A DNA stretch of 57,670 nucleotides from an uncultured Methanosarcinales archaeon (GTDB taxonomy: Archaea > Nanobdellota > Nanobdellia > Woesearchaeales > DSVV01), in assembly GCA_964469935.1 (NCBI GenBank), contig CAYXZQ010000005.1, positions 1-57,670 of the forward strand, written 5' to 3'. Positions 1,077-45,735 of this stretch are shown here, in pieces; within the stretch, counting starts at the first letter, position 1, and every line of letters starts with the position of its first letter. Below the pieces are notes generated by a model. The model did no database searches. It worked only from the letters and a program-made list of their open reading frames with translations, and was not told the DNA's origin. The position numbers and the translations under genes were made by a program.

Positions 1077-1080
1077 TTTT

Positions 1081-2793: not shown

Positions 2794-2824
2794 CCATCCA
2801 CCCTTTTTTCAAGTCTCAAAAAAG

Positions 2825-3985: not shown

Positions 3986-4092
3986 CAGTACTACCTAAAA
4001 TTTACAATTATATATAACTTTCTATTGAATGCCTATATAAACAGCCCATCCGAAGCGGGCTTGCAGGCTCTTTTTTCAATGTGTAATTTGGC

Positions 4093-5028: not shown

Positions 5029-8000
5029 ACTCTCACCTCGGCGATTGTCGGTCCCCAGAGGTATGGCACATCGTGCACGACCCAGGAGTTCACGATGAAG
5101 TTGCTGCTCCCGAAGTTGATGAAGATCCTGCCATCGTTGTTGTAGTCCACGTGGACGAGGAAGTTGTACATCGCCCAGTCATAGGAGTCGTCGTTGTCGA
5201 AGCCCGAGGTGTCATGGCTCGTGTTCGTGTAGGTACACTGGCGCGGTCCTGTGTAATCGGTAGGGACTGAAAGGGTGAAATTGTATCCCAGCTCGTGCTC
5301 GATTGTCCAGTTGCATCCTGTGGCGTTTGCGTGGACCGAGCTGTAGGGGTCTGTGAAATTTATCATGTTGATGAGGCCGGTGTAAAGCAGCGTTGTGTTG
5401 ACAGAACAGTTTGTCGAGTTGAAGGCATTGTCCCCAGTCCCGACGGTGATCGTGTTGGTCTCGCCCTGCTCGAAATAGGGTCCGGGTATGGGTATGGGGA
5501 AGGGATCCCCGAGGTTGGCGTAGTTCGTATTGAAGTGCGAAAGATTGTAGGCGACATGGGTGCCCATGCTGTTGGTCACTGCGACATAGTCTGTCCAGTG
5601 CTCGCCCGAATAAGGGAGAAGGTATGCCTCAAACGGCCTTATCTGTGAAGGTATCTGCAGGTCATACGAGCATCCTCCGAAATCAGGCGACTCGAAGAAG
5701 ATCGGGACCTCGCCGTGGATAATGGGCGGAATTATCGGGGTGTAGTTCAGTGCGATATAGGAATCGTGGTAGAGGTACGATTTCTCGAACGCGCCGCGGA
5801 ATGAGATTATCTGGGATTTCTTGAGGGAGAAGATCAGGCGAAGCTCGTTTGCGATGTTGCCGTATATCTCTGCGAGCCCCTCCGGGTCGTCGCTTGTGAA
5901 GAAATGCGGGCTGGCTGGCGTGTAATCAGGGTCGCATAGCGCCGTGAGGTTGAGGGCAAGGTCCCCTCCGCTTCCTATATTCCCGAAGCCGACCGTGTAG
6001 AGCGACACGCCGTAATTCGAGTTGAAATAGCATGACATGTTGATGAGCTGCTCAGTCGCCCGCTTCTCGATGCTGCTTAGGTCGGAGGACGCCTGGACCT
6101 CCGGTATCTGCGGGCATTCGTTGTCGATTGCACCGTCCGCTCCAGGACAGCATGCCCTTCCGCAGTCGTCGCAGTTGCCGTCATTGAATGTCCCGAACTT
6201 GCCCACGCAGGCATTGGAGATCCCGTCGCTCATGATGACGAGGGCCTTCTGCCTGTTGGTGATGTTAGATGTGAGCTGGACATTCAGCCTGCCCGTGCCG
6301 TCAGAATTCTTGAGCTTGATGGCGAGGACGTTATTGCCCCTGACGAAGTCCGCCGGGGTGACCGTTATGTTTCTGCCGGACTGTGCCCCTGTGTAAGAAT
6401 CCAGGAGATTGTTGTTGAGGTAGATGTCTGCCCCGCTGTCAGATGTTATGCTCATCGCCATGGGTTCATGGAGGTCGTAGAGGCTGTTTACGAAGAAGCT
6501 GTTCCTGTAGAAGGTGTTTTTGCTGTCCCTGGTGAATGCCAGCTGGATGTTGTCGAATGAGATTGAGCCGAATTTCGAGGACGAGTCCCTCAGGAGCTTC
6601 CCGCCCAATGCGATGTAGTAGAAACCCGGGCCCTCGTCCAGGTAGGGCTTGATGTCCTCTGCGAACAGCCCTTCGCCTTCTGTGTCAGGGTCATCCGTCG
6701 TCCATATCTCAGGGGTCGTGTCGCCTCCTTCGGACGACATCTCGCTCCCGAGCCAGTGCACCGCTGTCGACGGCTTCTCAAGGTATCCTTTTATCCATAC
6801 CTGGTCCCCTGTGTCGAAGATGCTGCTTGAGCCGTCGTCCCTCGGGTCCCATCGGTAGTTGAATGAGAGCCAAGCGCTGCCTCCAGGCGAATTCATCGCG
6901 TTGATCATCGCCTGCGTGATGTTCACCTGGATGCCGTAGCTCCCCGAGGCGTCGCTTGAGGTCCTGTCAGCGACCATCTCCAGGTCTCCTGAGCTTGTCG
7001 GGTAGAAGTCCATGTTTCCTGAAAATCCGTAGACGCCCTCCTGCCAGTCCCATCCGTCATCGCCGTTGTTTGTCCAGTTGATTATGACCGTGATGTTGTC
7101 GAATGCCACAAGGGTCTGGCCGGGCCCCCAGACATCCGCACCGCATTCGAGGACATAGCCGAATGTCCTTGAAGTGACGTACGGGGTCATGTCGACCGTC
7201 ACCGGGGTAGGGCCGTCCGGCGGAAGGCTTCCGGCTGTCCATGTCTCGTTCCAGAGTGTCGTCTCGCCCCCGGGATATGTCAGGTTGCAGAAGGCTTTCG
7301 CTGTCCCGTCGAAGTGGCTTGAGTTGATGCTGTGGACAAGGCTTAGCGTCACTTTGTTTGGGGAATCCGACGGCGACTGGAATGTCTGGCTGAGATAGCC
7401 CGTGCTTCCCCTGCCTGAGTCGACGAACCAGTAATGGTGCAGCCCGAATATGTCGGTTGTCGCCGACTTGGAGACCACTGATACGTCGTCCAGGTTCCAT
7501 CCGCTGTATTCCCAGCTTCCATCTGTCTGGGTCCCGAACCTTATCCTGAGGTTCGGATTGCCGTCGGCGTATGCTGAGATGTCAGTCTCCTGCAGGCTCC
7601 AGCTGTCGTCCGTCATCTCTGAAGGGTTTGTCCACACCGTATGCCAGCTCCCGCCTGAGTCAGTAACCCATATCCTTGCCTGGTCATATGAAGGGGCTTC
7701 GACATTTAGCCACCTGTAGTAGCGGAGCACGGTGTCTGTGCATGAAGTGCAGTCTATTGTCGGCGATGTCAGCCTGCTGTTGGCATAGTTCTGGTAGTCG
7801 CCGTTCCAAAAAGGGGATGTGCAGTCCTCGCCCCATATCCTCGAGCCTGAATGGGCAAAGTCCGGGTCCGGATTGCCGTGGGATCCGCCCCCCCTTCCGA
7901 CGGGTGTCCCGTACTGCCATTGCTCCCTTGTCCCGCCCGCGCTCCAGCCCAGGTTGGTCTCGAAATCGTCGGAGAAGACCGCGGTCGAGCCAGGGTCTGA

Positions 8001-9863
8001 AAGGTTGATTGCCCCCTGCTCTGTCCATCCTGATGTGGAAGGGCCGTCGAAATACGAGTTGTTCAGCAGGTTCTCTGTCACGTCCGCAGTTATGAAGCCG
8101 AAGGTGTTCTTGATGGAGTATATGCCTGAGGTGAAATCCACAGGAGCCGGGGCATCGTTCGGCTCGTCCCACAGGTCGGCCTGAATCACGTTTCCCGTGT
8201 AGTAGTCGCTCGGCTGGCCGAAACCGAAATTCTGGAGCCCGTCCGACCAGTTCGCATCGTCGTATCCGTTCGCTGTCCACCCCGGCGGGTCGACTACCTG
8301 ATAGTCGTCGGTGTATTTCCATGCCTTGCTGAGCATGTCCACAGGGCTTCCTGTGAGAAGGATGTTCGACGCCTGGAGGACTCCGCACGAGGTGCAGGTA
8401 CCGCCGTTCGCATAGTAGCGGTCTATCTCGTCAGTGAGGCTTGTCAGGTTGGTCCCGAGGTCCAGCATGTTCCTGATAGAGGTGTAATAGGTCGTAAGCC
8501 CGACCCTGTTGCCAGTTATGTTGTAGAGGATGTCGTGCGCGAAGGTCTTGAGGATGCATTTGGCGACAGAGAGCTTCTCCGAGTCGGGGTCGTTAAGCGC
8601 AAGGTCCTTGCAGAACCTCTCTGTCCCGGTCGTGTCCGAGTCGAATTTCCAGTCCATGCTCCCCGAGACGTCTGTTATGGCCACCACGTCGCCGTTGCCC
8701 TTGTCAGTGATGATTGACTGGTAGCTGAGGTTCTCGAACCCGACTCTCAGGGGCACTGTCTGGTTGCTTAGCCTAGTGTAGTTCAGGATGGCTGAGAGTA
8801 CGCTGTTGTTTATATGCACCCTCATCGACGTGTTCGAGAAGTTGTCCCTGTAGACCGTTGTGTTGCCGATGGTCAGGTAGAACGTGTTGTTGCTGGTGTT
8901 TGAATGGTTAGCCAGGTAATGCAGGTATATGTCCATGTTGTTAAGGGTGCCTGGCACGTTGAAACCATCATACAGGTTGACGATGCCGTCAATCCCGGGG
9001 AAATAATAGGTGCCGGAGCTCATGTTCTTCTGGTAGATGTTCTTTGTGAGGTAGGTTATCTTGATGAAGCCGCCGCCGATGTATGACCTGTTCAGGAGGC
9101 CGCTGAACCTGAAAGAGAAATTGTTCTCGCCTCCTTTTGCGATAGAGGCGTTGCAGAAGTTGATGTTCCATGCCTCTGAAGTCAGGTTGCCCGGCGGCAC
9201 CGTGAAGTTGTTGCAGAATATCCCGTTGATGTAGAGCGAGAAATCATCTGCAGAATCAAGCTCAAGGTACATCTCCGTGATGTTGGCGTCCGACGGTATG
9301 CTGCTAATCGTTGTTGATACGTTTCCCTGCCCCACGAAACCTCCGAGGTAGGCATACCTGGTCGTCAGCGTGCTCGACAGCTGGTTGAGGTATATCCTGA
9401 CTGCCGTGCCCTTGATGGGCCTGGCTTTCTCTATGCCTGTTATCATGTTCTTGAATGTCACGAGCTCGTCGCTCTTGCCCTTCGGTTGGCTGTACACCAC
9501 GTCATTGCCGACCATGAAGGAGTATCCGAACCTGCCGGGGATGAGCTGGGCAGAGATGTTCTGGGCGAGCTTCCTTGCAAGATCTGTCCTGTTGGTCACC
9601 CAGAATATTCCAATCTGCTCGAGAATCGTGTTGTCCATGTCAGTGATGTTTCCGTCGGCGATGAGCTCCTGGAGATATGAGTTGTTGAGCTCGTCAACCT
9701 TCAGGTTTGAGAAAAGCGATATCGTGTCCTGGGAATAGTAGTTCAGCTGGGTCCTCGGCTGGGTGCTGACATAGAGGTTCGACAGCAGGAGAAAGCCGGT
9801 GACCAGTATGAAGAGCGCAAGGAGCGCATCGATGGTGAAGAAATAACCTTTTTTCATTGCCAT
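5019..9863 (-). CDS. Large pilus-associated adhesin: class III signal peptide, vWA domain and inserted beta-sandwich domains
   Basis: MKKG|YFFTIDALLAL; MIDAS elements DVSGSM, GGT and MSDG; Trp/Asp/Gly-rich jelly-roll-like segments. Confidence 0.85.
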   Translation of the reverse strand: MAMKKGYFFTIDALLALFILVTGFLLLSNLYVSTQPRTQLNYYSQDTISLFSNLKVDELNNSYLQELIADGNITDMDNTILEQIGIFWVTNRTDLARKLAQNISAQLIPGRFGYSFMVGNDVVYSQPKGKSDELVTFKNMITGIEKARPIKGTAVRIYLNQLSSTLTTRYAYLGGFVGQGNVSTTISSIPSDANITEMYLELDSADDFSLYINGIFCNNFTVPPGNLTSEAWNINFCNASIAKGGENNFSFRFSGLLNRSYIGGGFIKITYLTKNIYQKNMSSGTYYFPGIDGIVNLYDGFNVPGTLNNMDIYLHYLANHSNTSNNTFYLTIGNTTVYRDNFSNTSMRVHINNSVLSAILNYTRLSNQTVPLRVGFENLSYQSIITDKGNGDVVAITDVSGSMDWKFDSDTTGTERFCKDLALNDPDSEKLSVAKCILKTFAHDILYNITGNRVGLTTYYTSIRNMLDLGTNLTSLTDEIDRYYANGGTCTSCGVLQASNILLTGSPVDMLSKAWKYTDDYQVVDPPGWTANGYDDANWSDGLQNFGFGQPSDYYTGNVIQADLWDEPNDAPAPVDFTSGIYSIKNTFGFITADVTENLLNNSYFDGPSTSGWTEQGAINLSDPGSTAVFSDDFETNLGWSAGGTREQWQYGTPVGRGGGSHGNPDPDFAHSGSRIWGEDCTSPFWNGDYQNYANSRLTSPTIDCTSCTDTVLRYYRWLNVEAPSYDQARIWVTDSGGSWHTVWTNPSEMTDDSWSLQETDISAYADGNPNLRIRFGTQTDGSWEYSGWNLDDVSVVSKSATTDIFGLHHYWFVDSGRGSTGYLSQTFQSPSDSPNKVTLSLVHSINSSHFDGTAKAFCNLTYPGGETTLWNETWTAGSLPPDGPTPVTVDMTPYVTSRTFGYVLECGADVWGPGQTLVAFDNITVIINWTNNGDDGWDWQEGVYGFSGNMDFYPTSSGDLEMVADRTSSDASGSYGIQVNITQAMINAMNSPGGSAWLSFNYRWDPRDDGSSSIFDTGDQVWIKGYLEKPSTAVHWLGSEMSSEGGDTTPEIWTTDDPDTEGEGLFAEDIKPYLDEGPGFYYIALGGKLLRDSSSKFGSISFDNIQLAFTRDSKNTFYRNSFFVNSLYDLHEPMAMSITSDSGADIYLNNNLLDSYTGAQSGRNITVTPADFVRGNNVLAIKLKNSDGTGRLNVQLTSNITNRQKALVIMSDGISNACVGKFGTFNDGNCDDCGRACCPGADGAIDNECPQIPEVQASSDLSSIEKRATEQLINMSCYFNSNYGVSLYTVGFGNIGSGGDLALNLTALCDPDYTPASPHFFTSDDPEGLAEIYGNIANELRLIFSLKKSQIISFRGAFEKSYLYHDSYIALNYTPIIPPIIHGEVPIFFESPDFGGCSYDLQIPSQIRPFEAYLLPYSGEHWTDYVAVTNSMGTHVAYNLSHFNTNYANLGDPFPIPIPGPYFEQGETNTITVGTGDNAFNSTNCSVNTTLLYTGLINMINFTDPYSSVHANATGCNWTIEHELGYNFTLSVPTDYTGPRQCTYTNTSHDTSGFDNDDSYDWAMYNFLVHVDYNNDGRIFINFGSSNFIVNSWVVHDVPYLWGPTIAEVRVWQ

Positions 9864-10384
9864 GCATAGACCACCATGTTCACTATCGACCTGTTGTAGA
9901 CCAGTATCCTTGTGAGGCCCGCAAGATTGTTATGGCTGACCCCGCCCATGCTAACAGCGCCTCCTGGCCCTGGTTCAGTCCTGGGATTGCCCACATACCA
10001 TATCCCGCTGAGATTGGCAGGCAGCCCGTCTTTGCCTGTGAAGAAGACTGCGAAATCGCTCTTAATGCCGAACCTGCTCCTGGTCCTGTTGTAATCCTCC
10101 AGGGTCATGTTCCGGAACCTGTAGAGCTTTGTGTAGTTGATGATGCTTCCGCCGTCAGTGATGCCTATCCTCTGGACGTCAGTCCTGTTCCAGCCGGGAG
10201 GGTAGCCCTGAGTCACGAGGGACTCAGAGACTATCTTCGCGTCTAGGTAGACGTTGTTTAGGTTGTTCAGCTCCTGCGACTGGACATTCGGAAGTATCTT
10301 GTAGTAGAGTACCAGGCAGAGGCTGAAGATGAATATCGCGAGGATGAAGTCCATGTACCATGTCTGCGCCCTTTTAGTTGAGAT
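9854..10384 (-). CDS. Minor pilin-like protein with class III signal peptide
   Basis: The frame upstream of the ATG at 10354 encodes ISTKRAQTWY before MDFILAIFIF, giving a KRAQ prepilin motif. The only plausible start after the in-frame stop is ATC at 10384. Confidence 0.75.
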   Translation of the reverse strand: MSTKRAQTWYMDFILAIFIFSLCLVLYYKILPNVQSQELNNLNNVYLDAKIVSESLVTQGYPPGWNRTDVQRIGITDGGSIINYTKLYRFRNMTLEDYNRTRSRFGIKSDFAVFFTGKDGLPANLSGIWYVGNPRTEPGPGGAVSMGGVSHNNLAGLTRILVYNRSIVNMVVYAWQ

Positions 10385-10760
10385 ATATCACACCCCCTTC
10401 CTTCGAGATGTTGTTTTCGCCCTTGCGTATTGAGCCTACGACTGGCGGGACTGCGAATTCGGCAAGCTGATGGGTCTTTTCAGACTGTAGCACCAGATAG
10501 CCCCCTGATATCGTTATGTTGTACCTTACCCCGTCGTGGGTCTCGGGCACCTTGAACTGCCTGAAGTATCCGTCCTTCACTCCGGCTGCAAGAAAGAACT
10601 CGTTCTGGACAGAGTATCCCACGTCCCTTATGGAATTGAACTCCTTCTCCATGGTGAGCGACTGCATGTCGTCGGAGATGGCGTAAAGGAAAATCAGGAG
10701 GAAAATCATCCCCATGCCTAGAAGTATCAAGAACTCGTTTGCAACCTGCCCTTTCTTCAT
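10374..10760 (-). CDS. Pilin-like protein with class III signal peptide
   Basis: MKKG|QVANEFLILLG with Glu at +5. Confidence 0.85.
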   Translation of the reverse strand: MKKGQVANEFLILLGMGMIFLLIFLYAISDDMQSLTMEKEFNSIRDVGYSVQNEFFLAAGVKDGYFRQFKVPETHDGVRYNITISGGYLVLQSEKTHQLAEFAVPPVVGSIRKGENNISKEGGVIYLN

Positions 10761-10801
10761 TTTCCCCTTTTTTATCGGCGATGACGCCCCTCCCGTTCCG
10801 C

Positions 10802-11218
10802 TCAGGATCTGGTCGAGATGTTCACGGCATAGTCGTCAGCCGTAATCTCGATGTAATGTATGCCCGGCCTTGCAGACAGGCTTCCCGTCAGGTTCACTGT
10901 CGAGGATTCAGCAGATATGTCCGACATGCCGATGCTTGTCTTCATGAGGAAATCCACGGACTGCGGCGATATCGTGATGTTCTGCACCTCATCAGGGATG
11001 TATACCTTAAGGGTCGTCTTGGAAGGCTTTCCCAGGTAGTAGACTGTCTCTGCTGAATCGACGATTTTTCTCGCTATGTCGTAGGCCTGCTTTTCGTTGA
11101 CCTGGTCCCTTGCAGTCATGCCCTGTGTCCCGTATATTACGAACAGGGGAATAATCATGAGCAGGGCGAATCCCACGACCAGCATGTACTCCATAGCGAC
11201 CTGGGAGCGTTTGGCCAT
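10802..11218 (-). CDS. Pilin-like protein with class III signal peptide
   Basis: MAKRS|QVAMEYMLVVG; start moved to the ATG at 11218, downstream of a TTTAAATA box. Confidence 0.85.
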   Translation of the reverse strand: MAKRSQVAMEYMLVVGFALLMIIPLFVIYGTQGMTARDQVNEKQAYDIARKIVDSAETVYYLGKPSKTTLKVYIPDEVQNITISPQSVDFLMKTSIGMSDISAESSTVNLTGSLSARPGIHYIEITADDYAVNISTRS

Positions 11219-11297
11219 GGTCCTATTACTCAAACTATTCATATTTAAAGTTATGCCTGCGATTGTAACTATTTAAGAATGAATTTTCATGATGGAG

Positions 11298-11795
11298 CTA
11301 CCCTGTTTCATCCCTTCTTGCAAGTATCTTCCTGACCTTTCTCCAATGCTCTTCAGCTACGATATATCCAATGCAGTTTTTTGAGCCGCATCTGCAGGGA
11401 TGGTCCTCGAATTCATCAGGCCCATAGCCATAGTTGTAGGATATCTCTTCGCCTTTTTTGATGTCCCTGAGCGCGGTTATCCAGATATGGCCCCTGATTA
11501 TCTCTGTCTCGCAGTTCGGGTCGCAGGAGTGGTTGATGAACCTCGCTGTGTTGTACGGGACTTTGCCGTCGATGTCATGCCTCTTGTTAAGCTCGAATAT
11601 GTAGACTGCCCCGTTGTTCTCGTCGGCATTGCCGATCGTCTCAGTCACCCTGTCCTCTGCCTCTTTTTTCGTCACTTTCTCTCCGACATACTCAATTACC
11701 CTTGCCCCTTTAGGTATGTCTTTTCTTGCGAACACGCCCCTGTTGTGGATGCTGGACTTCCTCACGATGATGTAGGGAGATGTCGTCGGCTTCAT
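11298..11795 (-). CDS. SET-domain protein-lysine methyltransferase
   Basis: SSIHNRGVFA, EYVGE, ARFINHSCDPN, GEEISYNY and post-SET CRCGSKNC. Confidence 0.95.
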   Translation of the reverse strand: MKPTTSPYIIVRKSSIHNRGVFARKDIPKGARVIEYVGEKVTKKEAEDRVTETIGNADENNGAVYIFELNKRHDIDGKVPYNTARFINHSCDPNCETEIIRGHIWITALRDIKKGEEISYNYGYGPDEFEDHPCRCGSKNCIGYIVAEEHWRKVRKILARRDETG

Positions 11796-18043: not shown

Positions 18044-19387
18044 TCACACATCGCTCATGTACAGGTGTGCTGAGAAATCAGTGAGCACGAGCGGGCCCCT
18101 GGCAAACCCTGTCTTTCCTGCGACATGCTGGTGAAGGGTGCCCAGGGCATATAGGTTCGGGACGAATGCCCCCTCGCCTTCCATGAGCCTGCCTTCCTTT
18201 GTCACTGTCGCTATGTGCTGGCTCCTGTAGGCAGAGTGCATCTCGAGTTTCTTTCCCCTGACCACGAACCAGATGAAGTCAAGGCAGGGCGGACTGCTTG
18301 TGTCAATATCCTTTTCCGGGTCCCAGAGGGTTATCATGCACCTTCTCGTGTTCGGGTTCTTCTTCAGGACCGCAATCGCCCTGTCCACCTGGTTGCCCCA
18401 TCTCCTAAATATCCTGTCATGGTAGGTGTAGGCGAACTCGTCAAGCTTCTCGCCGGTCCCGTCCATGAACTCGCTGACGTATTTCTTTATGTAATCCTCG
18501 GAGAAATGCTCAGGTATCTTCTGCAGCACGTCCCTGATCGTCACGCTGAACGAGCGGGACTCCATGGTTATGACCCCTCTCTGGTCCCTGAACATGTCGC
18601 CTTTCTCGTACACGAATGCAGTCACCATCTCCAGTGCGTCGACCAGGTTGTCGGCGTGGACTGTCTGGCCAAGAGGGAGCCTTGAATATTTCTCTATGAA
18701 TTTCACCTTCTTTGCTGTCGTCGACAAATCAAGCTTGTATGGCTTGTCGAACCTGGCACCGTCATCATATAATCTTTTGTTCTTTATGACCTGCGAATAG
18801 AATTCCACGTCATCAGGCACAGGGGTCGCATCCTTTGGCCATTCAATCATGCACCTCACGAGCTCCTGTGTCCTTTCGAAATCCCCGATGTTCCTGATGA
18901 CGACGAGATCGCACTGCCTCCTGACCCTCTCAAGGGCGTCAAGGGGAACCTGCTCGAATTTCGGGTTGGGCGACTTCGAGCCGATGATTATCCCATTGCC
19001 GTCGACACCGTTCTTCCAGAAATTAGTGAGCGCCTCCGCGAGGAGATGGCCGTTGTCCCTGAGCCCGAACACGAGGAGCACCAGCTTGTTGATGTTGGGG
19101 TTTGCGAGGATGTTTGCAAAGACGTACCTGGCGCCGTTAGTGGTCTTCCAGAGCCCAGCCATGTTGGCATAGCTGGAAATCTTCTGGAAGAATTCCATGA
19201 CATCTTCGGGCGGCCTGTCGCTCTTCCAGGTATACACGAATCCTGCTGCGATGTTTGAGGAGGGGTTTCCCATGATCACGTCGTCGGAGGAGAACAGCTG
19301 CATCTTCGGCAGCTCGTCAGGCTCGAATTTCATCTTCTTTATGTCTTTTTTCAGGAAAGGGTCCCTGCCTATCTTCTCGATTCTCAT
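18044..19387 (-). CDS. Fusion of an MtrA-like (corrinoid-binding) N-terminal domain and an archaeal-type thymidylate-synthase-like C-terminal domain
   Basis: N-terminal ANILANPNINKLVL...NGHLLAEAL..FWKNGVD..G.IIGS resembles MtrA. C-terminal YTYHDRI..WGNQV...NPNTRR...LWDP...PPCL...RS...PN...SAHLY resembles TS. Likely start is 19387; the track start overlaps the divergent gene. Confidence 0.8.
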   Translation of the reverse strand: MRIEKIGRDPFLKKDIKKMKFEPDELPKMQLFSSDDVIMGNPSSNIAAGFVYTWKSDRPPEDVMEFFQKISSYANMAGLWKTTNGARYVFANILANPNINKLVLLVFGLRDNGHLLAEALTNFWKNGVDGNGIIIGSKSPNPKFEQVPLDALERVRRQCDLVVIRNIGDFERTQELVRCMIEWPKDATPVPDDVEFYSQVIKNKRLYDDGARFDKPYKLDLSTTAKKVKFIEKYSRLPLGQTVHADNLVDALEMVTAFVYEKGDMFRDQRGVITMESRSFSVTIRDVLQKIPEHFSEDYIKKYVSEFMDGTGEKLDEFAYTYHDRIFRRWGNQVDRAIAVLKKNPNTRRCMITLWDPEKDIDTSSPPCLDFIWFVVRGKKLEMHSAYRSQHIATVTKEGRLMEGEGAFVPNLYALGTLHQHVAGKTGFARGPLVLTDFSAHLYMSDV

Positions 19388-19432
19388 CGTCGAATGAAAA
19401 AATATAAAACATAAAAACTTTTCCTTTGGCCC

Positions 19433-20011
19433 ATGAAAGTAATCGCCGTAGTCGGGATGTGCGGCTCGGGCAAGAGCGTGGTCGCGGACATGCTCAGCAA
19501 AAGAGGCCTGGGCTTTCTCAGGTTCGGCCAGCTGACCCTTGACATAGTCAGGGAGAAGGGCCTCGAGCCCACTGAGGAGAACGAGCGTCCCATCAGGGAA
19601 GGGCTCAGGAAGGAGCATGGCATGGCAGCATTCGCCATACTCAACATCCCGAAGATAGACAGGCTTCTTGAGAAGGGAAGTGTCGTGGTCGACGGCCTGT
19701 ACAGCTGGGAGGAGTATCTCGAGATGAAGAGGAAGTACGGCAGCGATTTCATCACCCTGGCAGTATACGCATCGCCCGCGACCAGGTATTCGAGGCTCTC
19801 GGCCAGGAAGTTCGACAGCAGCAAGGACAAGGAGATGAGGTTCCGGCCCCAGACCCCGGAACAGTCCAGGTCAAGGGACCATGCAGAGATAGAGAACATG
19901 AGCAAGGCCGGGCCGATTGCGATGGCAGACTACACGATTGTCAACGAAGGCAGCATGGAGGACCTGGAAGCACAATTCAACAGGTTTTCAGGACTTTTTC
20001 TTTCGAGGTGA
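19433..20011 (+). CDS. P-loop nucleotide kinase (dephospho-CoA-kinase-like/UPF0200 type)
   Basis: VVGMCGSGKS, VVDGLYS..E, RD.AEI, ADYTIVNEGS. Confidence 0.8.
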   Translation: MKVIAVVGMCGSGKSVVADMLSKRGLGFLRFGQLTLDIVREKGLEPTEENERPIREGLRKEHGMAAFAILNIPKIDRLLEKGSVVVDGLYSWEEYLEMKRKYGSDFITLAVYASPATRYSRLSARKFDSSKDKEMRFRPQTPEQSRSRDHAEIENMSKAGPIAMADYTIVNEGSMEDLEAQFNRFSGLFLSR

Positions 20012-30074: not shown

Positions 30075-30614
30075 TCAGGCGAAATGGTATATCTTCTTGA
30101 TCTTGATTATCTTTTTCTTGCACCGGATTCTGACATCATGCTTGAAGCTTTTCAGCGAAGACTTCATTTCTCTGAGCCTTGAATCGAATCCCCTCAGCTT
30201 TCCACGTGCCTGGCTGATCTGCTGCCTGATATGTTCGGGATTATTTGGGATCTTGCCCTTTCTCATTTCCTTGATGAGCTTCGCTTCCTCGCCATCAAGC
30301 CTCCTCTTTTCGCTTTTCATGTGGGATTCGAAATCGCCCAGCTTCTTCTCGATATCCTTGTAGTCGTACTGAAGCCTCACTGTCTTGACAAGGGCGAAAT
30401 GATGGACCTGCTCTAGAAGCGACATCTGCTTCCTTATGCTGCCTAGGAGGCTTATGATGTTTTTGGATTTCCTTGCCGCATCCGCCTCCCTGTCGACAGC
30501 GCTGATCTCCTTGATGATCTTTATGATATTGCTGTTCAGTGCCTGCTCGGTCCCGAAATTCTTGAGCTCTCCGACGCCCCTTCCCTTGCGCAGCAGAAGT
30601 TCCTTGAGTCCCAT
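30075..30614 (-). CDS. Hypothetical basic coiled-coil protein
   Basis: 179-aa ORF filling the gap; K/R-rich and helical; TATA-like TTTATAAA upstream. Confidence 0.55.
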   Translation of the reverse strand: MGLKELLLRKGRGVGELKNFGTEQALNSNIIKIIKEISAVDREADAARKSKNIISLLGSIRKQMSLLEQVHHFALVKTVRLQYDYKDIEKKLGDFESHMKSEKRRLDGEEAKLIKEMRKGKIPNNPEHIRQQISQARGKLRGFDSRLREMKSSLKSFKHDVRIRCKKKIIKIKKIYHFA

Positions 30615-31166: not shown

Positions 31167-31281
31167 GCGGGGGTGCCGGAGTGGCCAAACGGGACAGGCT
31201 TAGGCGGGGCGTATCGTCCGGTGCGTTCCAAGGAAACCTGTTGGCTTAGTGCCTACGCGGGTTCGAATCCCTCCCCCCGCA
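31167..31281 (+). tRNA. tRNA-Leu(TAG) with a 31-nt intron at 37/38 (31205..31235)
   Basis: Acceptor GCGGGGG/CCCCCGC-A, anticodon stem ACAGG/CCTGT, long variable arm, GTTCGAAT T-loop. Confidence 0.9.
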
Positions 31282-31587
31282 GCCTTTTTATTCGTGCTTT
31301 GCTGGAAAAAAAGCCTGTGCAAATCCTGTGCTGGTGCTTTTTTTAATAGAAAAACAGCACGATATTTCTGATAATTCGTACTACTCGACCCACAGGTTGA
31401 TGTTGCACTTGATTTGGGTTGATAAGGGCGAAGCCCTTACGTGGGAATCCCTCCCCACGGTAAATCAATCCAGGCGGGAATTCAACTGGGTTTATTAAGT
31501 CGTCGCTTTGGCTGCTTTTCAAAAAGCAGTATGGGAACATTTAACTCGGCAGATGTCACTTTTCAATGATACTATCCGGATGATATT

Positions 31588-33072
31588 CTAGAAACCGTAA
31601 ATATCTGAATACTTGGCATTGAGATAATCGATGAGCACCTTAGGTCTCAGCCCGCTTCCTGTCGTGTTCTTGACTATCTGCTCTGCGGTCCTTGTCTTGC
31701 CCTTGCTGTAGACATGCCTTCTCAGCCAGTCGATGAAGGGCAGGAAATCGAGCCCTTTGACCTTCTCCATCGCTCCGGGCAGTTCCCTGAACATCTGCCT
31801 GTGGAGCTGGGCTGCATATATCATGCCAAGCGCGTAGGTAGGGAAATATCCGAAATCACCTGCGGCCCAGTGGATGTCCTGGAGCAGCCCCTCGTTGTCG
31901 TTTTTCGGCACGATTCCAAGGAGATCCTGCATCTTTTTGTTCCATTCATTCCGTATCTGGCTGACCCTTAGCCTGCCGTTTATCAGGTCCCTCTCTATCT
32001 CGAACCTTAGGATGATATGAAGTATGTAAGTCACCTCGTCAGCATTGACCCTGACGAGCGAGGGCCTCACGGTGTTGACATGCTCGTAGAAGTCGCTCCA
32101 GGATGGCTTGCTGTCAAGATGCCTGCAATATCTTTGGCAATATCTCTGCCAGAACTCCCTGCTCTTGCCGATATTGTTCTCCCAGAGTATGGCCTGGGCC
32201 TCGTCAAGACCGTATGACGCCTGGTTGTATATCACTGTGTGATAATATCTCTTCGGAAGGTTCATCTCATACAGGGCATGGCCTGTCTCGTGGAGAGCGG
32301 CGAAGAAGGATTCGAGGGGTTCCTGGAATCTCGTGGTTATCCTTATGTCGTTCCTTGAGATCCTGGTGGTGAACGGATGTGGGGATGTGCTCACGATGAC
32401 CTTCTCGTCCGAGATTCCCATGGTCTTCAGAAACTCGGTTATGATTTCCTTCTGCTCCCTTTTCCTAATCCTTAACTGCAGGGGCTTCTGCTCCCCGTAC
32501 TTCCTGGTGGCTCTTATCTTCTGCAGGATGCCTGCGAGCCCGGGCCCGAGGTACCTGAATATGTCTTCGTACCTCTGTGCGCTCATCCCCGGCTCGTATT
32601 CCCTTATGAGAACATCATAGGGCTGGGCAGAGGGATCTAGCATAATAGCCTGCTGCCTCTTGAGCTCGACCATCTTCTTGAGGTATGGCGAGAACAGGGA
32701 GAGATCATTGACCTTCCTTGCCTGCTTCCATCTCTCCTGGCTGATGACAGAATGCTTGACAAGAAGCTTCCTGAATCCAGGGGTGATCAGCCTTGCCTTG
32801 TCGATCTGGCTCTCAAGCTCGCTGATTATTATCTGTTCAGTCTTTGAGATATTGCCTGACTTGAGCCTCGAAATTGCCTGGGAAAGCCCCTCGGAAGTCA
32901 TCCTTTCCTGAATCAGGTTCTCTATGAACTTCACCTGCTCGGACCTGCCGTAGAGTGCGGCCCCGGGCATGTTGGTGTTCTCGTCCCAGTCAAGAAGCGC
33001 GGATATGCCCCTGAGTATTGATATCTCTTTTTGGGCATTGTAAATGTATTCGATGTCAGGTTCCCTGGGCAT
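31588..33072 (-). CDS. Carboxypeptidase, M32 family
   Basis: WD..T.MP, HPF, DIRITTR, HETGHALYE, RVNADEVTY, QDIHW, GYFPTY. Confidence 0.93.
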   Translation of the reverse strand: MPREPDIEYIYNAQKEISILRGISALLDWDENTNMPGAALYGRSEQVKFIENLIQERMTSEGLSQAISRLKSGNISKTEQIIISELESQIDKARLITPGFRKLLVKHSVISQERWKQARKVNDLSLFSPYLKKMVELKRQQAIMLDPSAQPYDVLIREYEPGMSAQRYEDIFRYLGPGLAGILQKIRATRKYGEQKPLQLRIRKREQKEIITEFLKTMGISDEKVIVSTSPHPFTTRISRNDIRITTRFQEPLESFFAALHETGHALYEMNLPKRYYHTVIYNQASYGLDEAQAILWENNIGKSREFWQRYCQRYCRHLDSKPSWSDFYEHVNTVRPSLVRVNADEVTYILHIILRFEIERDLINGRLRVSQIRNEWNKKMQDLLGIVPKNDNEGLLQDIHWAAGDFGYFPTYALGMIYAAQLHRQMFRELPGAMEKVKGLDFLPFIDWLRRHVYSKGKTRTAEQIVKNTTGSGLRPKVLIDYLNAKYSDIYGF

Positions 33073-33095
33073 CCAGGCATTGATTCCATCATAGT

Positions 33096-34505
33096 TTATA
33101 AATATGGTGTTTTGGTGCCCCTGTACCTGTCTGAGAAAGTTTCCCTGGCTTTAACAAGCCGGATGCTATTGCCTGAGAATGCCGCATAGGCAGCTGTCGG
33201 CTGCTGCCATCTCCATGCTGTCGAGAAAGTGTATGCGCCCTGGTGCATCACTGCGAGGAAGTCGCCTTTCCTGCATCTTTCTCCGAAATACGCGCTTCCG
33301 AAATGATCGTCAGGGTCGCAGAGAGGGCCGAAGATACGTGCCCTCTGTATGCTTCCAGAAGGTCTTGTGATGTTCACGACAGGGAAGTATTCGAGGTCGA
33401 AGGCAGAGCTTCCTATAAGGTTGATTCCCCCGTCGACAAATATGCCCTGCTTTCTTACTGAGACGACGCGGAGCAGGATATAGGTCGCCAGGGATGAGAT
33501 GTATCTTCCTGGCTCGGCCCATATCTCTATATCTTTGAGCGGGCCTGTGCAGTGTCTTTTTACAGCTGCGCCTATCTTTTGGGCAAAAGCCTCTATCTCC
33601 TCTATCTTTTCAGGCTTTATCATGCCCAGGCGGCTGTCTCTCTTGTCCGCAATCTCTAAGAGCCCCCCTTTCTTCGTCGCGGAAAAGAGCGTTCCGCTCC
33701 CCTCTGCAAGGAACCCTCCGCCGATGTCCAGAAACCTCAGTCCAGCAAGCTCCTCTTTTGAGAAATTCCTCTTTAAAAAACCGGCAATCTTTTTAATGTC
33801 GTCGACATAAGCTTTCGGGCCTTTGTTCCAGCTCGCATGGAAATGCACCCCTGCCCATGCAAGCCCTTTCTCTTTCGCCATCCCTGCCGCTTCAGCTAGC
33901 TCATCCAGCTCAAGCCCGAATTTCTTCCACTCATGCCTTATCCTGAAGCTAATCCTTGTCTTCTGGGTTCTTTTGCCGCTGCCAACCGCCTGCAGCTCAT
34001 TGAGCCTCGCGACATCCAGGAGCTCGTCGAGATTGTCGATATTGATGACGACCCTGTCCCGGTGCTTCAATGCAAGCCCAAGTTCTGCCTCTGATTTCAC
34101 AGGCGCAGTATATATTATGTTCCTGAACCCGAGATTCAGCGCAAGCTCAAGCTCCAGCCCGCTCGCCACATCGGCTTCAAAGCCTTCGCTTTTGAGGATG
34201 CTTATCAGATGGGGGAGGTCGTTGCTCTTGAATGCATAGAAGAATCTCATCTTCGGGATGTGTCCTTTGAATGCCGATATGAACCTGAGCGCTCTTTTCT
34301 TCAGCATGTCCTCGTCAAGGACATACAGCGGGGTGCCGAACTTTTCAGCGCACGTGAAAAGCGCTACCCTGGAATCTATCGCTGCATCTGCATATCTCCT
34401 GAAGACAGACTCATCGCTGAGCTTGACTTCCTCTTCTAGGATTTCCCTTAACCTGTCCCTGAACTCTTTCCATTCCAGGGGCCTGTCCTTTTCTTTGGGC
34501 ATCAT
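33096..34505 (-). CDS. Fold-type III PLP-dependent decarboxylase (diaminopimelate/ornithine decarboxylase family)
   Basis: TPLYV, YAFKSN (PLP Lys), DVASGLE, KFG, HFH, DIGGG, EPGRY, GPLC..DD, GAY. Start at 34505 overlaps the ATP-grasp stop (ATGA). Confidence 0.88.
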   Translation of the reverse strand: MMPKEKDRPLEWKEFRDRLREILEEEVKLSDESVFRRYADAAIDSRVALFTCAEKFGTPLYVLDEDMLKKRALRFISAFKGHIPKMRFFYAFKSNDLPHLISILKSEGFEADVASGLELELALNLGFRNIIYTAPVKSEAELGLALKHRDRVVINIDNLDELLDVARLNELQAVGSGKRTQKTRISFRIRHEWKKFGLELDELAEAAGMAKEKGLAWAGVHFHASWNKGPKAYVDDIKKIAGFLKRNFSKEELAGLRFLDIGGGFLAEGSGTLFSATKKGGLLEIADKRDSRLGMIKPEKIEEIEAFAQKIGAAVKRHCTGPLKDIEIWAEPGRYISSLATYILLRVVSVRKQGIFVDGGINLIGSSAFDLEYFPVVNITRPSGSIQRARIFGPLCDPDDHFGSAYFGERCRKGDFLAVMHQGAYTFSTAWRWQQPTAAYAAFSGNSIRLVKARETFSDRYRGTKTPYL

Positions 34506-35800
34506 TCTTTCTCCTTCTCGATCTCGATGACTGTCTTTTCCCTCACCAGCCTTATGAGCTCTGGTATCTTTTTCTGCTCCACGCCCCTGAGCATGACGTA
34601 TCCAAGCTGAAGCTTCTGGCGGGACGACCTTATCGATTTTCCTGCATTGAGGTATTTGCATATCTCAAGCATCCCCAGGCTGTGCCAGTTCTCTTCGAAG
34701 TACTTTGTGTCGAAGACGTTTATCCTTCCAAGGGAAGGGGCGCTGATATAGATCACGAGACCGTTGTTTTCGGGGTCATCAGGGATCCTGTACCTGTTGC
34801 CGTTGCCGAGCATCTCCTTCATGTAGATGTCTATGCTGGTGGTCCTGTACAGATTAGACATAAGGTTGACGAAGGTGCTTATCCCCGGCCGGATCGTGGT
34901 CTCTATCACGTATATGCTGCGGTCCCGGACTATGAAGTCCATCATGCACACGCCCTTCCTTATTCCCAGGGCAGTTGCTGCTCTGCTGCAGACATCCTCT
35001 AGCTCCTTCACTTCGAATTCCCTGTCTGCCGGCCCCTGTGAGTCAGGATTGAAAAGGTATAGGGCATCGAAAAACCCGAACATAGAGCTGTATTTCCTCA
35101 CGACACGGAGGACCTGCGCCCTGTCTCCCCTTACTATATAATCGCATGAGTATTCATTGCCCCCTATGTATTCCTCGACCACGAACTCATGCCTCGGGTC
35201 GAATGTCCTGCCTGACGTCGCGTGCCTTGCGAGCATCGGGTCCTTCTCTGCCCTCTTCGCCATCCTGCCGAGCTCTGCCCAGTTCTTCCTGAACTCCCCC
35301 TGGCTCTTGTTGAGGTAGACATAGCAGCTTGCATATCCTGTGAGCAGCTTGAGGACATTTGGGAATCCTATCTCGTTTTTCGGCCCTGATATGAGCTGGA
35401 ACATAGGGACTTGCACACCATGCTCCCTGAGCCTCTCTCTCTGCAGATACTTGTTCGAGCAGAGATCGATGGTCTTCTTGTCATAGTACTCGAGCCCGAA
35501 CTCTGATGCGATCGCTCCTGAGAACCTGTAATGATGCTCCTCGTCGAGCCCGATGATCCCTGAAAGCTTCAACCTGTTCTTCTTCTGCCATTTTCTTATC
35601 CTGTCTATGAGTGCCTGCGGGCTCCTGAAGCTGTCGACAAGATAGGAGAAATCCCTCTTCTTGTAGGCCCTTATAGACGACCTGTCGCTGACCAGGAGCA
35701 GCCTCTCCTTCATCTCAAGGCTGTCAGCCACTGCCTTGAAATCATCCTCGTCAAGGTTCGTGACAAGGAGTATTATCACCCTCTCATCTGTGCCGGCCAT
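34502..35800 (-). CDS. ATP-grasp ligase (L-amino-acid ligase-like)
   Basis: CSNKYLQRERLREHGVQVP, GFPNVLK...G.AS, VVEEYIGGNEYSCD, IETTIRPG. Confidence 0.85.
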   Translation of the reverse strand: MAGTDERVIILLVTNLDEDDFKAVADSLEMKERLLLVSDRSSIRAYKKRDFSYLVDSFRSPQALIDRIRKWQKKNRLKLSGIIGLDEEHHYRFSGAIASEFGLEYYDKKTIDLCSNKYLQRERLREHGVQVPMFQLISGPKNEIGFPNVLKLLTGYASCYVYLNKSQGEFRKNWAELGRMAKRAEKDPMLARHATSGRTFDPRHEFVVEEYIGGNEYSCDYIVRGDRAQVLRVVRKYSSMFGFFDALYLFNPDSQGPADREFEVKELEDVCSRAATALGIRKGVCMMDFIVRDRSIYVIETTIRPGISTFVNLMSNLYRTTSIDIYMKEMLGNGNRYRIPDDPENNGLVIYISAPSLGRINVFDTKYFEENWHSLGMLEICKYLNAGKSIRSSRQKLQLGYVMLRGVEQKKIPELIRLVREKTVIEIEKEKE

Positions 35801-35869
35801 GCTCCGAGTCCCCCATCCGGGCGGAGATGACAGCAGGATTTATAAATTTAATCAACTATCTCCTCTTTC

Positions 35870-36712
35870 ATGGCGCAAAAAAGGGCTGCGGGCGGCGATG
35901 GACCGGACAGGGACTATGGAAAGCTGGAACAGTTTCTTGGAATCTTTGCACAAGACAGGCTGTCTGTCCTGAAGTCCATCGGGACCCAGCCGAAATCCAA
36001 TAAGAAGATGTACTTGCTCAGTGCGACCGCCAATCCGGCCAACCCGAGGGTGCTGATCTCGGCAGGGACCCATGGTTCAGAGCCTGCGGGCGTGTTCGCG
36101 CTGCGCGATTTCCTGGAAAACGGGGCGAGGGACATGTTCGCGCATCTCAATCTTGACATCCTTCCGTGCAACAATCCCCATGGCTTCGAGACAGGGCAGA
36201 GGAGGAACCCTGACGGCATCGACATAAACCACAGCTTCTTTGGGGGAGGGCAGAGCCCGGAGGCGGCTCACCTGATGTCGTGGTTCAACAGGAACATGCG
36301 GTCATATTCCCTCTTTCTTGACCTGCACGAGGACTCGATAGGCGACCTCGGCAGGGAGTTCTCAAGGGCGGATTATCCCGGGAAGTTCTACATGTACGAG
36401 ACCTGCGAGGACAGGAGCAGGCGGATTGGCAGGGAAATAATAAAAGCTGTGAAGGGTCTTGGCCTTCCTGTGTCCATGAGGCGCTCGATCTACGGCGACA
36501 TGAGCCGGGGCGGAGTCATATGGTATCCAGAAGGAAGGACAGGCAGGGTCTACCGGGACAGGATAACATTCGATGATTTTCTGGAGGGTAGATTCACGGA
36601 CCACGTAATTGTCGTCGAGACACCGACATTGTGGGAGCTGAAGACAAGGATAAGGGTTCAGAGGAAGATAATCGATATCGTGCTGGATTCGCTGCTGAAG
36701 CAGAAGGGCTAA
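35870..36712 (+). CDS. M14-family Zn peptidase/deacylase (succinylglutamate desuccinylase/aspartoacylase-like)
   Basis: SAGTHGSEPAG, NPHG....R, DIN, LDLHED, VET. Confidence 0.88.
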   Translation: MAQKRAAGGDGPDRDYGKLEQFLGIFAQDRLSVLKSIGTQPKSNKKMYLLSATANPANPRVLISAGTHGSEPAGVFALRDFLENGARDMFAHLNLDILPCNNPHGFETGQRRNPDGIDINHSFFGGGQSPEAAHLMSWFNRNMRSYSLFLDLHEDSIGDLGREFSRADYPGKFYMYETCEDRSRRIGREIIKAVKGLGLPVSMRRSIYGDMSRGGVIWYPEGRTGRVYRDRITFDDFLEGRFTDHVIVVETPTLWELKTRIRVQRKIIDIVLDSLLKQKG

Positions 36713-38049
36713 AGCTCCCTGAGGTAGCCCCAGTTGTGCAGCTTGTCGCTGTCCTCGAACCAGCTGTCGCCTATGTCGGTCCTGTAGTACATGTGGGGTA
36801 TCTTGATGTTCCTGATTCTCGTGTAAGCCTGCTGCTGGGCCTGTTTCATTGTCTGGCCGCACCCGCATACGATGAGGACGACTCCCGACTCGCCTGTTAT
36901 GAGCCATTCCTTCTTGACCCTCTTTACGTCCTCTATGTGCACGCCCTCTGGCGGAGACTTCTTGAAGAATATGATGGAGTCCTTTGACTTTACGTCGAAC
37001 GTCTCCTTGTCGGTGTATGGGAAAGGCGGCACGACGATTCTCACGCCCACCTGGAATCCGCTCTTTGTCTTGAGCTTCGGGTTGCCCCCTCTTGCGAGCT
37101 CGTACATGAAATATCCAATCGGCGTGAGCATCCCCTCGTGCTGGATGCTGATTGTCGGATAGCCGAACCTGGCTGTCCATTCCAGCGGGTATATGCCGTG
37201 GTTGTTGACAATGCAGTTGAGGTCTACGTAACCTACGTACTTCTCCTCGGCAAGCTTTCCCTCGAACTTCCTGAGCGTGTGGTTGAATATCTTGTTCGGC
37301 CCGCTCCAGAACATGGACGTGCCCATCTCCCCTGTGCTCGGGCCGAGGTTGCCGGGAAAGAGCTTCTTGTGCTCGAAATTGACATTGATTGGATACAGGA
37401 ATTCCTTGCCGTTGAAGAAAGCGCCTACAGCGACCTCGACGCCAGAGACCCTCCTCTGGAGCTGGAACGAAGGTATCTTCTCTGCCCAGGCGTTCTTGTA
37501 GTCATTGAGCACCTGTATTACGTCCCTTCCGTCATCCTCCTCGCCAACGAAGAGCAGGCCTTTTAGGTTCTGCGCCTCTCCAGAGGGCTTTATGACATAC
37601 CTGTTCGGGTTGTGCTTGACGAACTTGATTGCCTCGCTAAAGCTCCTGAAGTTCCTGTACGGGATTATGGGAACCCCGTATTTCTTGAGCTGCTCCTGGC
37701 CGAATGACCTGTTGTCCTCTAGCCTGTCCGTATACGGCGTCCCGCCGATGACGTATTTTCCCCTTCTCCGGAGCTTTCTCGCGATTGTCCCCATGCCAAG
37801 GACATCGTCGAATATTATGACATCTGCCCAGGCGACCTCGCTCTCCCAGTCGTCGACCTTTGTGAAGAACCCGTTTCCCACTTCCTTGTCGGATTCGGCC
37901 TTTGTGTAGAACCTGACCTCGTGGCCCTCTTTTCTTATCTGCCAGGCGAGGTCTCCGCAAAGGGCGTCTATGGTTATGAATAGGAATCTTTTAGGGGAGA
38001 AATCCTTGATGCTGTTTTTCCCGTTGGACCGGTTGTTATTTCCTGCCAT
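36709..38049 (-). CDS. PurD-related (phosphoribosylamine-glycine ligase-like) ATP-grasp protein
   Basis: LEDNRSFG, YVIKPSG, GVEVAV, EHKKLFPGNLGPSTGEMG, LEWTARFGYP, YYRTDIG; lacks the PurD N-terminal GSGGREH. Start probably 38049. Confidence 0.85.
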   Translation of the reverse strand: MAGNNNRSNGKNSIKDFSPKRFLFITIDALCGDLAWQIRKEGHEVRFYTKAESDKEVGNGFFTKVDDWESEVAWADVIIFDDVLGMGTIARKLRRRGKYVIGGTPYTDRLEDNRSFGQEQLKKYGVPIIPYRNFRSFSEAIKFVKHNPNRYVIKPSGEAQNLKGLLFVGEEDDGRDVIQVLNDYKNAWAEKIPSFQLQRRVSGVEVAVGAFFNGKEFLYPINVNFEHKKLFPGNLGPSTGEMGTSMFWSGPNKIFNHTLRKFEGKLAEEKYVGYVDLNCIVNNHGIYPLEWTARFGYPTISIQHEGMLTPIGYFMYELARGGNPKLKTKSGFQVGVRIVVPPFPYTDKETFDVKSKDSIIFFKKSPPEGVHIEDVKRVKKEWLITGESGVVLIVCGCGQTMKQAQQQAYTRIRNIKIPHMYYRTDIGDSWFEDSDKLHNWGYLREL

Positions 38050-45356: not shown

Positions 45357-45400
45357 ATATAAAAAACTTTTTATTTAGGTTGTATTTTTCGTGGGAGCAT

Positions 45401-45493
45401 ACGGCAGTGGTCCAACGGCTAAGACACGACCCTCCCAGGCAATATTTATTGCGGAGTGAGGTCGTTATCCGGGTTCGAATCCCGGCTGCCGTA
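45401..45493 (+). tRNA. tRNA-Gly(CCC) with a 21-nt intron at 37/38 (45438..45458)
   Basis: Acceptor ACGGCAG/CTGCCGT-A, anticodon stem CGACC/GGTCG, T arm CCGGG-TTCGAAT-CCCGG, clean bulge-helix-bulge (CTCC/GGAG). Confidence 0.9.
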
Positions 45494-45735
45494 TATTTCT
45501 TCTCTTGGTATTTGATTCCTATCCGGGATTCGAACGTCTGCGGAAAACTGGCGTTTTCCTTGACCCCTCGCTCGTCCTGGGACGGGCTTCAGGGAATCCC
45601 GGCTGCCGTATATTTCTTCTCTTGGTATTTGATTCCTATCCGGGATTCGAACGTCTGCGGAAAACTGGCGTTTTCCTTGACCCCTCGCTCGTCCTGGGAC
45701 GGGCTTCAGGGAATCCCGGCTGCCGTATATTTCTT
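45477..45735 (+). repeat. Perfect 117-bp tandem repeat (2 full copies plus 25 nt), each unit starting with the tRNA-Gly 3' end
   Basis: GAATCCCGGCTGCCGTATATTTCTT at 45477, 45594 and 45711; the intervening sequence is identical. Confidence 0.95.

Follow-up and report, generated by a model that had tools for sequence, protein, structure and literature searches.

Organization of the locus

Positions 1 to 57,670 of contig CAYXZQ010000005.1 (this whole stretch is referred to as the window) come from the assembly GCA_964469935.1 of a Woesearchaeota-type archaeon (designated G000, 90% complete) and harbor five adjacent genes centered on an ATP-grasp ligase (AG) and a pyridoxal phosphate (PLP) decarboxylase (DC), flanked by a PurD-like ligase, an M14-type zinc hydrolase and an M32 carboxypeptidase (Table 1). 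All five ORFs and their Pfam identities were confirmed. AG and DC are joined by an ATGA overlap, and a 23-bp gap separates DC from M32; AG and M14 diverge across 69 bp, and the stop codons of M14 and the PurD-like gene overlap by 4 nt. This arrangement, including the tRNA nearby, is as given in a preliminary description of the locus, which also reported correctly that other lysine or purine biosynthesis genes are missing here (none among the 34 other window ORFs scanned). The PurD-like gene, AG and DC lie on one strand, with M14 antisense between the first two. The five-gene order is preserved at ~75% nucleotide identity in G002, a genome recorded as Candidatus Woesearchaeota that belongs, like G001, to the same genus.

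Table 1. Features of the five-gene locus in window coordinates
Feature	Position	Strand	Size	Domains or score	Role
AG, L-amino-acid-ligase-type ATP-grasp	34502-35800	-	432 aa	PF13535/PF02655	core gene
DC, alanine-racemase-fold (group IV) PLP decarboxylase	33096-34505	-	469 aa	PF02784/PF00278	core gene
PurD-like (non-purine) ATP-grasp ligase	36709-38049	-	446 aa	PF01071/PF02843	recurring accessory partner
M14-type zinc hydrolase	35870-36712	+	280 aa	PF24827/PF00246	local neighbor
M32 carboxypeptidase	31588-33072	-	494 aa	PF02074, 481 bits	local neighbor
Palindromic TATA box	35839-35846				common to divergent AG and M14 genes
M32 TATA box	33095-33102	-			overlaps DC stop codon
tRNA-Leu(UAG)	31167-31281	+		31-nt intron, 31205-31235	flank only

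Pairing of the ligase with the decarboxylase

DC belongs to a 63-protein group set apart by a score gap (E 1e-56 to 1e-35). We fetched 101 loci of this group with search patterns drawn from 23 closer sequences, so that the sample is biased toward those; the 97 loci with a called DC ORF formed 75 groups at 90% identity, of which 9 end at contig edges and 66 are informative. The gene directly upstream of DC is AG in 46 informative groups, and otherwise a MurL-like gene (10), a member of another ATP-grasp family (4), a KamA-Ddl fusion (1) or none (5). Among the 32 groups with long flanks, an ATP-grasp gene is nearby in 31, the last having the KamA-Ddl fusion. Patristic distances of AG correlate with those of DC (r=0.93, 44 pairs), and the two trees (FastTree) have 18 of 41 splits in common; as judged from these phylogenies, the matching trees show co-inheritance, which is not by itself co-adaptation. 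Natural fusions also occur: among the best 150 matches of a profile search against 1.84 billion representatives, five proteins are AG-DC fusions (P0208, P0212, P0213, P0216 with an extra ligase, and the partial P0275), and P0230 fuses a second ATP-grasp family to DC. The AG-DC fusions are closest to SpeD/GNAT-type loci and not to the window's clade.

Titled records place the DC group in Woesearchaeota/Nanoarchaeota, Bathyarchaeia, Patescibacteria, Acidobacteriota, Omnitrophota, Spirochaetes and others. It is rare and patchy, occurring in 12 of the 301 genomes sampled from the host's order (the unpublished G254 among the 12). Taken together, these data support AG and DC as a conserved, laterally spread and uncharacterized amide-forming module. 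The lateral acquisition suggested in the preliminary description is upheld as spread among lineages, but no compositional sign of recent transfer was found: codon and GC values of the window genes fall within the range of the genome, which indicates that their acquisition is old.

Other genes recur around DC as well, including Ddl-like ligases (20/75 groups), a MurL-like epimerase (20/75), lysine 2,3-aminomutase (KamA, 14/75), a FemAB-like GNAT (8/75), LPG_synthase_C (6/75) and SET (4/75), and PanD is attached in some other DC clades. A survey of 230 short ORFs around DC in the 75 representative loci revealed none that is conserved as a small carrier or target. A larger archaeal module was seen in L044, L051, L052, L055, L057, L062, L070, L086-L090 and L117, combining two Ddl-like ligases, one or two MurL-like homologues of ATP-dependent epimerases, DC and sometimes PanD with lysine 2,3-aminomutase.

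Signatures of AG and DC

The closest solved relatives of AG are BL00235 (3vot), 4dim and RizA (4wd3); the match to 3vot covers the full length (profile E 1.5e-26, TMq 0.75). AG shows the three-domain fold of L-amino acid ligases with their ATP/Mg-binding Lys, Glu and Arg, and K117, E216, D288, E300 and R304 are invariant in 77 homologues. In fold and ATP/metal residues it resembles BL00235, RizA and BacD/YwfE (EC 6.3.2.-), from which it differs in its low structural identity (12-16%), the invariant R232/K236, its coupling to a decarboxylase and an ExT metal motif, the usual motif of L-amino acid ligases being ExN/A. In the AG clade that matches the window's DC clade the first loop is acidic, reading LDEDDF in the window.

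DC has the TIM barrel and beta-sandwich of group IV decarboxylases (model pLDDT 95.9, TMq 0.64-0.75) and retains the PLP/catalytic residues K93, H223, E331, R334, C396 and Y425. Its homologues are labelled 'diaminopimelate decarboxylase' in databases, and LysA, whose fold and PLP-binding residues it shares, provides its nearest solved structures; FigC and BtrK are also among its top structural relatives. In a quick tree of 68 rows, with loci whose DC is under 330 aa left out, the DC family forms one clade against LysA-like outgroups (SH-aLRT 99). DC lacks the Arg/Tyr of the RPxxY motif and the Tyr before the terminal Asn, and, compared with LysA, is longer by 25-30 residues in the stretch from DIGGG to EPGR. 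We conclude from these comparisons that DC is not LysA, because it scores 175.9 bits against the LysA/diaminopimelate decarboxylase (DAPDC) profile TIGR01048 (cut-off 297.9), the specificity-helix Arg that binds the distal carboxylate in DAPDCs occurs in 0 of 68 family rows versus 11 of 14 outgroup rows, and DapA (PF00701) and DapF (PF01678) of the diaminopimelate pathway were not found in the 90% complete G000. Nor does clustering mark DC as a housekeeping polyamine decarboxylase (ornithine, arginine or carboxynorspermidine decarboxylase), as speD, speE, speB and a pyruvoyl arginine decarboxylase lie on other contigs. All 14 rows of the window's clade carry D/E370 and E372 on the specificity helix, Asp397 after the catalytic Cys and a diagnostic Trp433.

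The PurD-like ligase

The PurD-like protein reaches 104 bits against TIGR00877 (cut-off 288). RFGYPT, which is invariant in 43 homologues, stands in place of the RFGDPE motif, and the N-terminal loop is divergent, with no GGREH-type P-loop. A canonical purD (RLGDPE) lies elsewhere in G000 (C22:3097-4518) in a pur cluster with purN and purQ, both named by eye, and purL/M. By these signatures the gene is a non-purine paralogue and not PurD. In both defects, the lost RFGDPE aspartate and the divergent N-terminal P-loop, it resembles the 'extra' haloarchaeal PurD-like proteins; according to the accessible part of their report, which names no partner or activity for them, Brown et al. 2011 excluded those extra copies on the same defects (PMC3261824).

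A PurD-like gene flanks DC in 9 of the 75 groups. In the window's clade of the DC tree (support 96), 9 of the 14 rows have a PurD-like gene alongside, five of them in one tight subclade, compared with 0 of the 54 rows outside that clade. Typically the PurD-like gene comes first, followed by AG and DC on the same strand (L047, L060, L065, L078-L081), and M14 in the window therefore looks like an antisense insertion into this series. On the PurD-like tree the DC-linked copies are scattered, requiring at least 4 changes, and the approximately unbiased (AU) test, run on a quick tree after a first tree had been seen and with L065 and the outgroup left out, gave p=0.034 against one clade; this suggests that DC-linked copies have been repeatedly recruited. 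In the order-wide sample 53 of 301 genomes carry a PurD-like gene, only 4 of the 53 together with DC, and the two adjoin only in G000. The PurD-like gene is thus usually stand-alone and has no obligatory link to DC, yet it is still a probable third gene of the module.

Several further features of this family were recorded. The window's protein is 94% identical to the copy in G002 (L016) versus 66-75% for the four neighboring proteins, and 90 of its positions are invariant in the 43 homologues. Insertions of ~340 aa interrupt the genes at G137:C10, G223:C87 and G138:C100; in two of the three the alignment breaks at query 243/244, next to the conserved GEMG motif, which gives them an intein-like look. 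Of 34 loci with stand-alone PurD-like genes, 5 have a GNAT gene adjoining and one has a distant AG-like gene there (L025, L027, L177, L178, L187, L175). In L047, a Patescibacteria record, two PurD-like genes flank AG-DC, and G088 has three or four copies.

The M14 and M32 genes

Both hydrolases retain the motifs of their families. M14 has H68xxE71 and DLHE, with the HxxE, downstream His and catalytic Glu in place, and scores below the cut-offs of named equivalogs; M32, which matches PF02074, has HEXXH (HETGH), HPF, DXRXT and QDIHW. Their association with DC is local. M14 profile matches occur in 1 (L036, a G002 locus) and M32 matches in 2 (L036, L063) of the 101 DC loci, all from the window's genus, and M14 accompanies DC only in G000 and G002. 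No AG or DC was found within ~1.5-kb flanks of M14 or M32 homologues in other relatives (4 and 7, respectively), and in a weak test M14 homologues coincided with DC or AG matches only in G000 and G002. M32 is frameshifted in G001 and G002, the two congeners that have it here, for which sequencing error is possible. Other hydrolases flank DC occasionally (S51 in 2 groups, C39-like in 2); a search for other conserved hydrolases among 65 flanking proteins gave only one, C39-like.

Genome-wide, the TATA motif TTTATAAA peaks 22-23 nt before ATG (34 of 124 motif-ATG pairs within 70 nt). It stands 22 nt before the M32 start in G000, G001 and G002 although the spacers have diverged, a leaderless-type arrangement, and a TATA motif lies 23 nt before the M14 start. 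The preliminary description placed AG, DC and M32 in one operon; the ATGA coupling of AG and DC is confirmed, but a three-gene operon is doubtful, because M32 has its own TATA box. At 22 nt past the TATA box common to AG and M14 stands an ATG that is not in the AG frame; the 10-codon ORF that it begins overlaps the start of AG (window 35784-35816, -). The equivalent ATG in G002 is AG's own start, and two runs cover this interval without gaps. The neighborhood and phylogenetic comparison proposed earlier divides the five genes: AG and DC recur together beyond the genus, joined by the PurD-like gene as described above, whereas M14 and M32 do so in one genus only. M14 and M32 are passengers, local neighbors of the module.

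Genomic surroundings

Near-identical DNA is present in salt-marsh metagenomes, and three salt-marsh DNA runs, one of which may be the source sample, cover 30 of 30 bins of the region. The tRNA-Leu(UAG) gene, 306 bp from the M32 stop, follows the usual Sm and L37e genes. It was found only in intron mode (ARAGORN -i) and missed by non-intron tRNA search and the Rfam gathering score; the tRNA-Ser label given by ARAGORN was rejected, as removal of the 31-nt intron gives tRNA-Leu(UAG). A recent island integrated at this tRNA was likewise rejected, since no integrase was found among the window ORFs scanned, composition is ordinary and synteny is kept in G002. The 95 bp 3' of the tRNA resemble those after another tRNA-Leu (84%), and a hairpin element of ~50 nt recurs beside tRNA-like sequence on C51 of G000 and sits within ~290-bp tandem repeats in G002; the intervals concerned are window 31283-31460, C51:9289-9336 and C33:6671-6764 in G000, and L016:13550-14170.

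Elsewhere in the window are a second intron-containing tRNA (45400-45494, +), a SET-domain gene 20 kb from the cluster (11298-11795, -), and a 179-aa ORF between exosome genes and Sm (30075-30614, -) that is 71% identical in G002 and has no Pfam or NCBIfam match. A 524-aa protein with MtrA-like and partial thymidylate-synthase domains is encoded directly upstream of thyA and dihydrofolate reductase (18044-19618, -), and the interval 261-11242 (-) holds a type II/IV secretion ATPase with membrane genes, preceded by several Pfam-less ORFs, one of 1614 aa.

Proposed function of the module

Pairing, coupling and fusions of AG and DC, their folds, their intact catalytic residues and the lost LysA and PurD signatures are direct observations. 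The reading we favor, and consider to have an even chance of being right, is that an amino acid is first coupled to a polyamine, with no carrier, and then decarboxylated; the order of the steps and the polyamine substrate are what we infer. AG would join an amino acid through its side-chain group to a polyamine-type amine, DC would then remove the free alpha-carboxyl to leave a cationic amide, and the two enzymes would act in sequence without a carrier protein. In the window's lineage the PurD-like enzyme would probably add a further aminoacyl group. PLP decarboxylation requires a free alpha-amino group; for DC to act after AG, the amide therefore has to sit on the side chain and cannot be an alpha-peptide. 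BtrK and FigC do decarboxylate conjugates with a side-chain amide, and acidic residues at such specificity-helix positions are assigned to the binding of basic groups, both according to the accessible part of PMC7857480. Both the acidic pocket of DC and the acidic loop of AG point toward a positively charged substrate.

In 6 of the 75 groups AG and DC have a SpeD homologue next to them, and all six copies examined have the signature Q-T-F-Y (mapped by eye), the four residues described in the accessible text of PMC10407285 as diagnostic for the L-ornithine decarboxylase SpeDC. Since these operons have a separate SpeDC source of putrescine, DC probably does something else. G000 also carries a full polyamine gene set, with speD, speE, an arginase-family gene and a pyruvoyl arginine decarboxylase elsewhere in the genome; together with its pur cluster, this makes it less reduced than the biosynthetically reduced lineage assumed in the preliminary description. 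At C22:24061-25678 lie speD, a speD-like gene and speE in tandem, the second having three of the four SpeDC diagnostic residues. The exact products might be gamma-aminobutyryl- or beta-alanyl-putrescine or -spermidine, though we consider exactly these substrates rather unlikely.

Several findings weigh against ligation to a polyamine followed by decarboxylation. An acidic pocket would accommodate a free basic amino acid just as well. The SpeDC operons belong to a different DC clade, mostly with Thr and not Asp after the Cys, and substrates may differ. The gene directly upstream of DC is MurL-like, and not AG, in those 10 groups. All structural matches of DC are only ~20-26% identical, with DAPDCs ranking first. 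Finally, a profile search of the 90% complete G000 found no Ddl-like, KamA, MurL-like, PanD, LPG-synthase or FemAB-like partners (absences were rechecked with profiles after a single-query tblastn had missed a SET gene present in G000). The G000 module may be reduced relative to other clades, and as the partners of those clades were not found in G000, products probably differ from clade to clade.

The strongest alternative, though an unlikely one, is that decarboxylation comes first, with DC turning free Orn, Lys, beta-Lys, Dab or Arg into a diamine that AG acylates. The acidic specificity helix, the Cys-Asp and the GAYT motif of DC are like those of ornithine decarboxylases, and the adjoining lysine 2,3-aminomutase could be read the same way; but a dedicated SpeDC-type ornithine decarboxylase already stands beside AG and DC in six groups, G000 already has another arginine decarboxylase with an arginase-family gene, and the extra residues of DC may serve a larger substrate. 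Modification of a macromolecule (protein tail, lipid head group or surface glycan) in place of a free metabolite is improbable. It would account for the recurring LPG_synthase_C, FemAB-like GNAT, MurL-like, Ddl-like and SET neighbors of DC and for an S-layer gene 1 kb from the PurD-like gene; against it, the short ORFs near DC include no conserved carrier or target, and envelope-type partners were not found in G000, save the SET gene 20 kb off.

The preliminary description proposed a make-and-break system in which the M14 and M32 enzymes would reverse or trim the ligase products. Its amide-forming half is borne out by the conserved AG/DC module with the recurring PurD-like gene. For the peptidase half, the order kept in G002, the bidirectional TATA box shared by M14 and AG and the occasional S51 and C39-like neighbors are favorable, but co-inheritance of a peptidase with the ligase across lineages was not found: among the DC loci both genes are confined to one genus, no AG or DC was found within ~1.5 kb of their homologues in other relatives, each has a TATA box of its own, and the M32 copies of both congeners are frameshifted, making a single five-gene system quite improbable. 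As that description held, these are hardly a chance gathering of ordinary LysA, PurD and housekeeping peptidases: despite database labels and best NCBIfam matches to lysA and purD, scores are far below cut-offs (176 vs 298 and 104 vs 288), the DAPDC Arg is missing, DapA and DapF were not found in the 90% complete G000, and a canonical purD lies on C22.

Comparison with known pathways

One close parallel is butirosin biosynthesis, where BtrJ, the ATP-grasp glutamyl ligase, is paired like AG with an alanine-racemase-fold PLP decarboxylase, BtrK (2j66, 7ru7). BtrK is one of the top structural matches of DC (TMq 0.70-0.72, 21% identity). Unlike BtrI/BtrJ/BtrK, AG-DC has no acyl-carrier protein or aminoglycoside genes nearby in the 75 loci with their 230 short ORFs, and it differs further in its distinct motifs HxHSSWN and AWRW/AWRF and in its natural fusions. 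BtrK itself acts on Glu-S-BtrI, as stated in the accessible part of PMC7857480. The siderophore pathways of FigA/FigC (FslA/FslC) and SbnH (7kh2, N-citrylornithine decarboxylase) share the logic of ligating and then decarboxylating a side-chain amide, and FigC is the second-best profile match of DC and the best for one family member. The partner here is an ATP-grasp enzyme and not an NRPS-independent siderophore (NIS) synthetase, DC scores 62.5 bits against NF041039 (cut-off 500), and its pocket is acidic where FigC, in the same accessible text (PMC7857480), has Thr/Met/His/Arg for citrate.

The AG-DC pair is an undescribed variant of these ligase-decarboxylase pathways, in which two genes form a firm core, a third probably belongs and two are passengers. 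No paper describing such a pair was found by title and abstract; the 2009 survey by Iyer et al., which reportedly covered ATP-grasp amidoligase neighborhoods, lay outside this search and may mention such operons. Routine labelling of such genes as lysA and purD inflates predicted biosynthetic capacity. The two-enzyme core with its natural fusions offers a direct and cheap assay route to new amide-forming chemistry, and the clade-specific active-site changes that track the PurD-like partner provide a handle on the PurD-like family. More tentatively, the module may be a carrier-free assembly line for cationic polyamide metabolites, in which the AG/DC core would make polyamine-like amides and lineages would swap add-ons such as PurD-like or Ddl-like ligases, KamA or PanD as suppliers of beta-amino acids, and the MurL-like epimerase. 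If true, this would give the very conserved non-purine PurD-like ligase its first functional context, and the module would represent the first family of specialized-metabolite pathways centered on DPANN archaea, a group presumed, like bacteria of the candidate phyla radiation (CPR), to synthesize hardly more than essentials.

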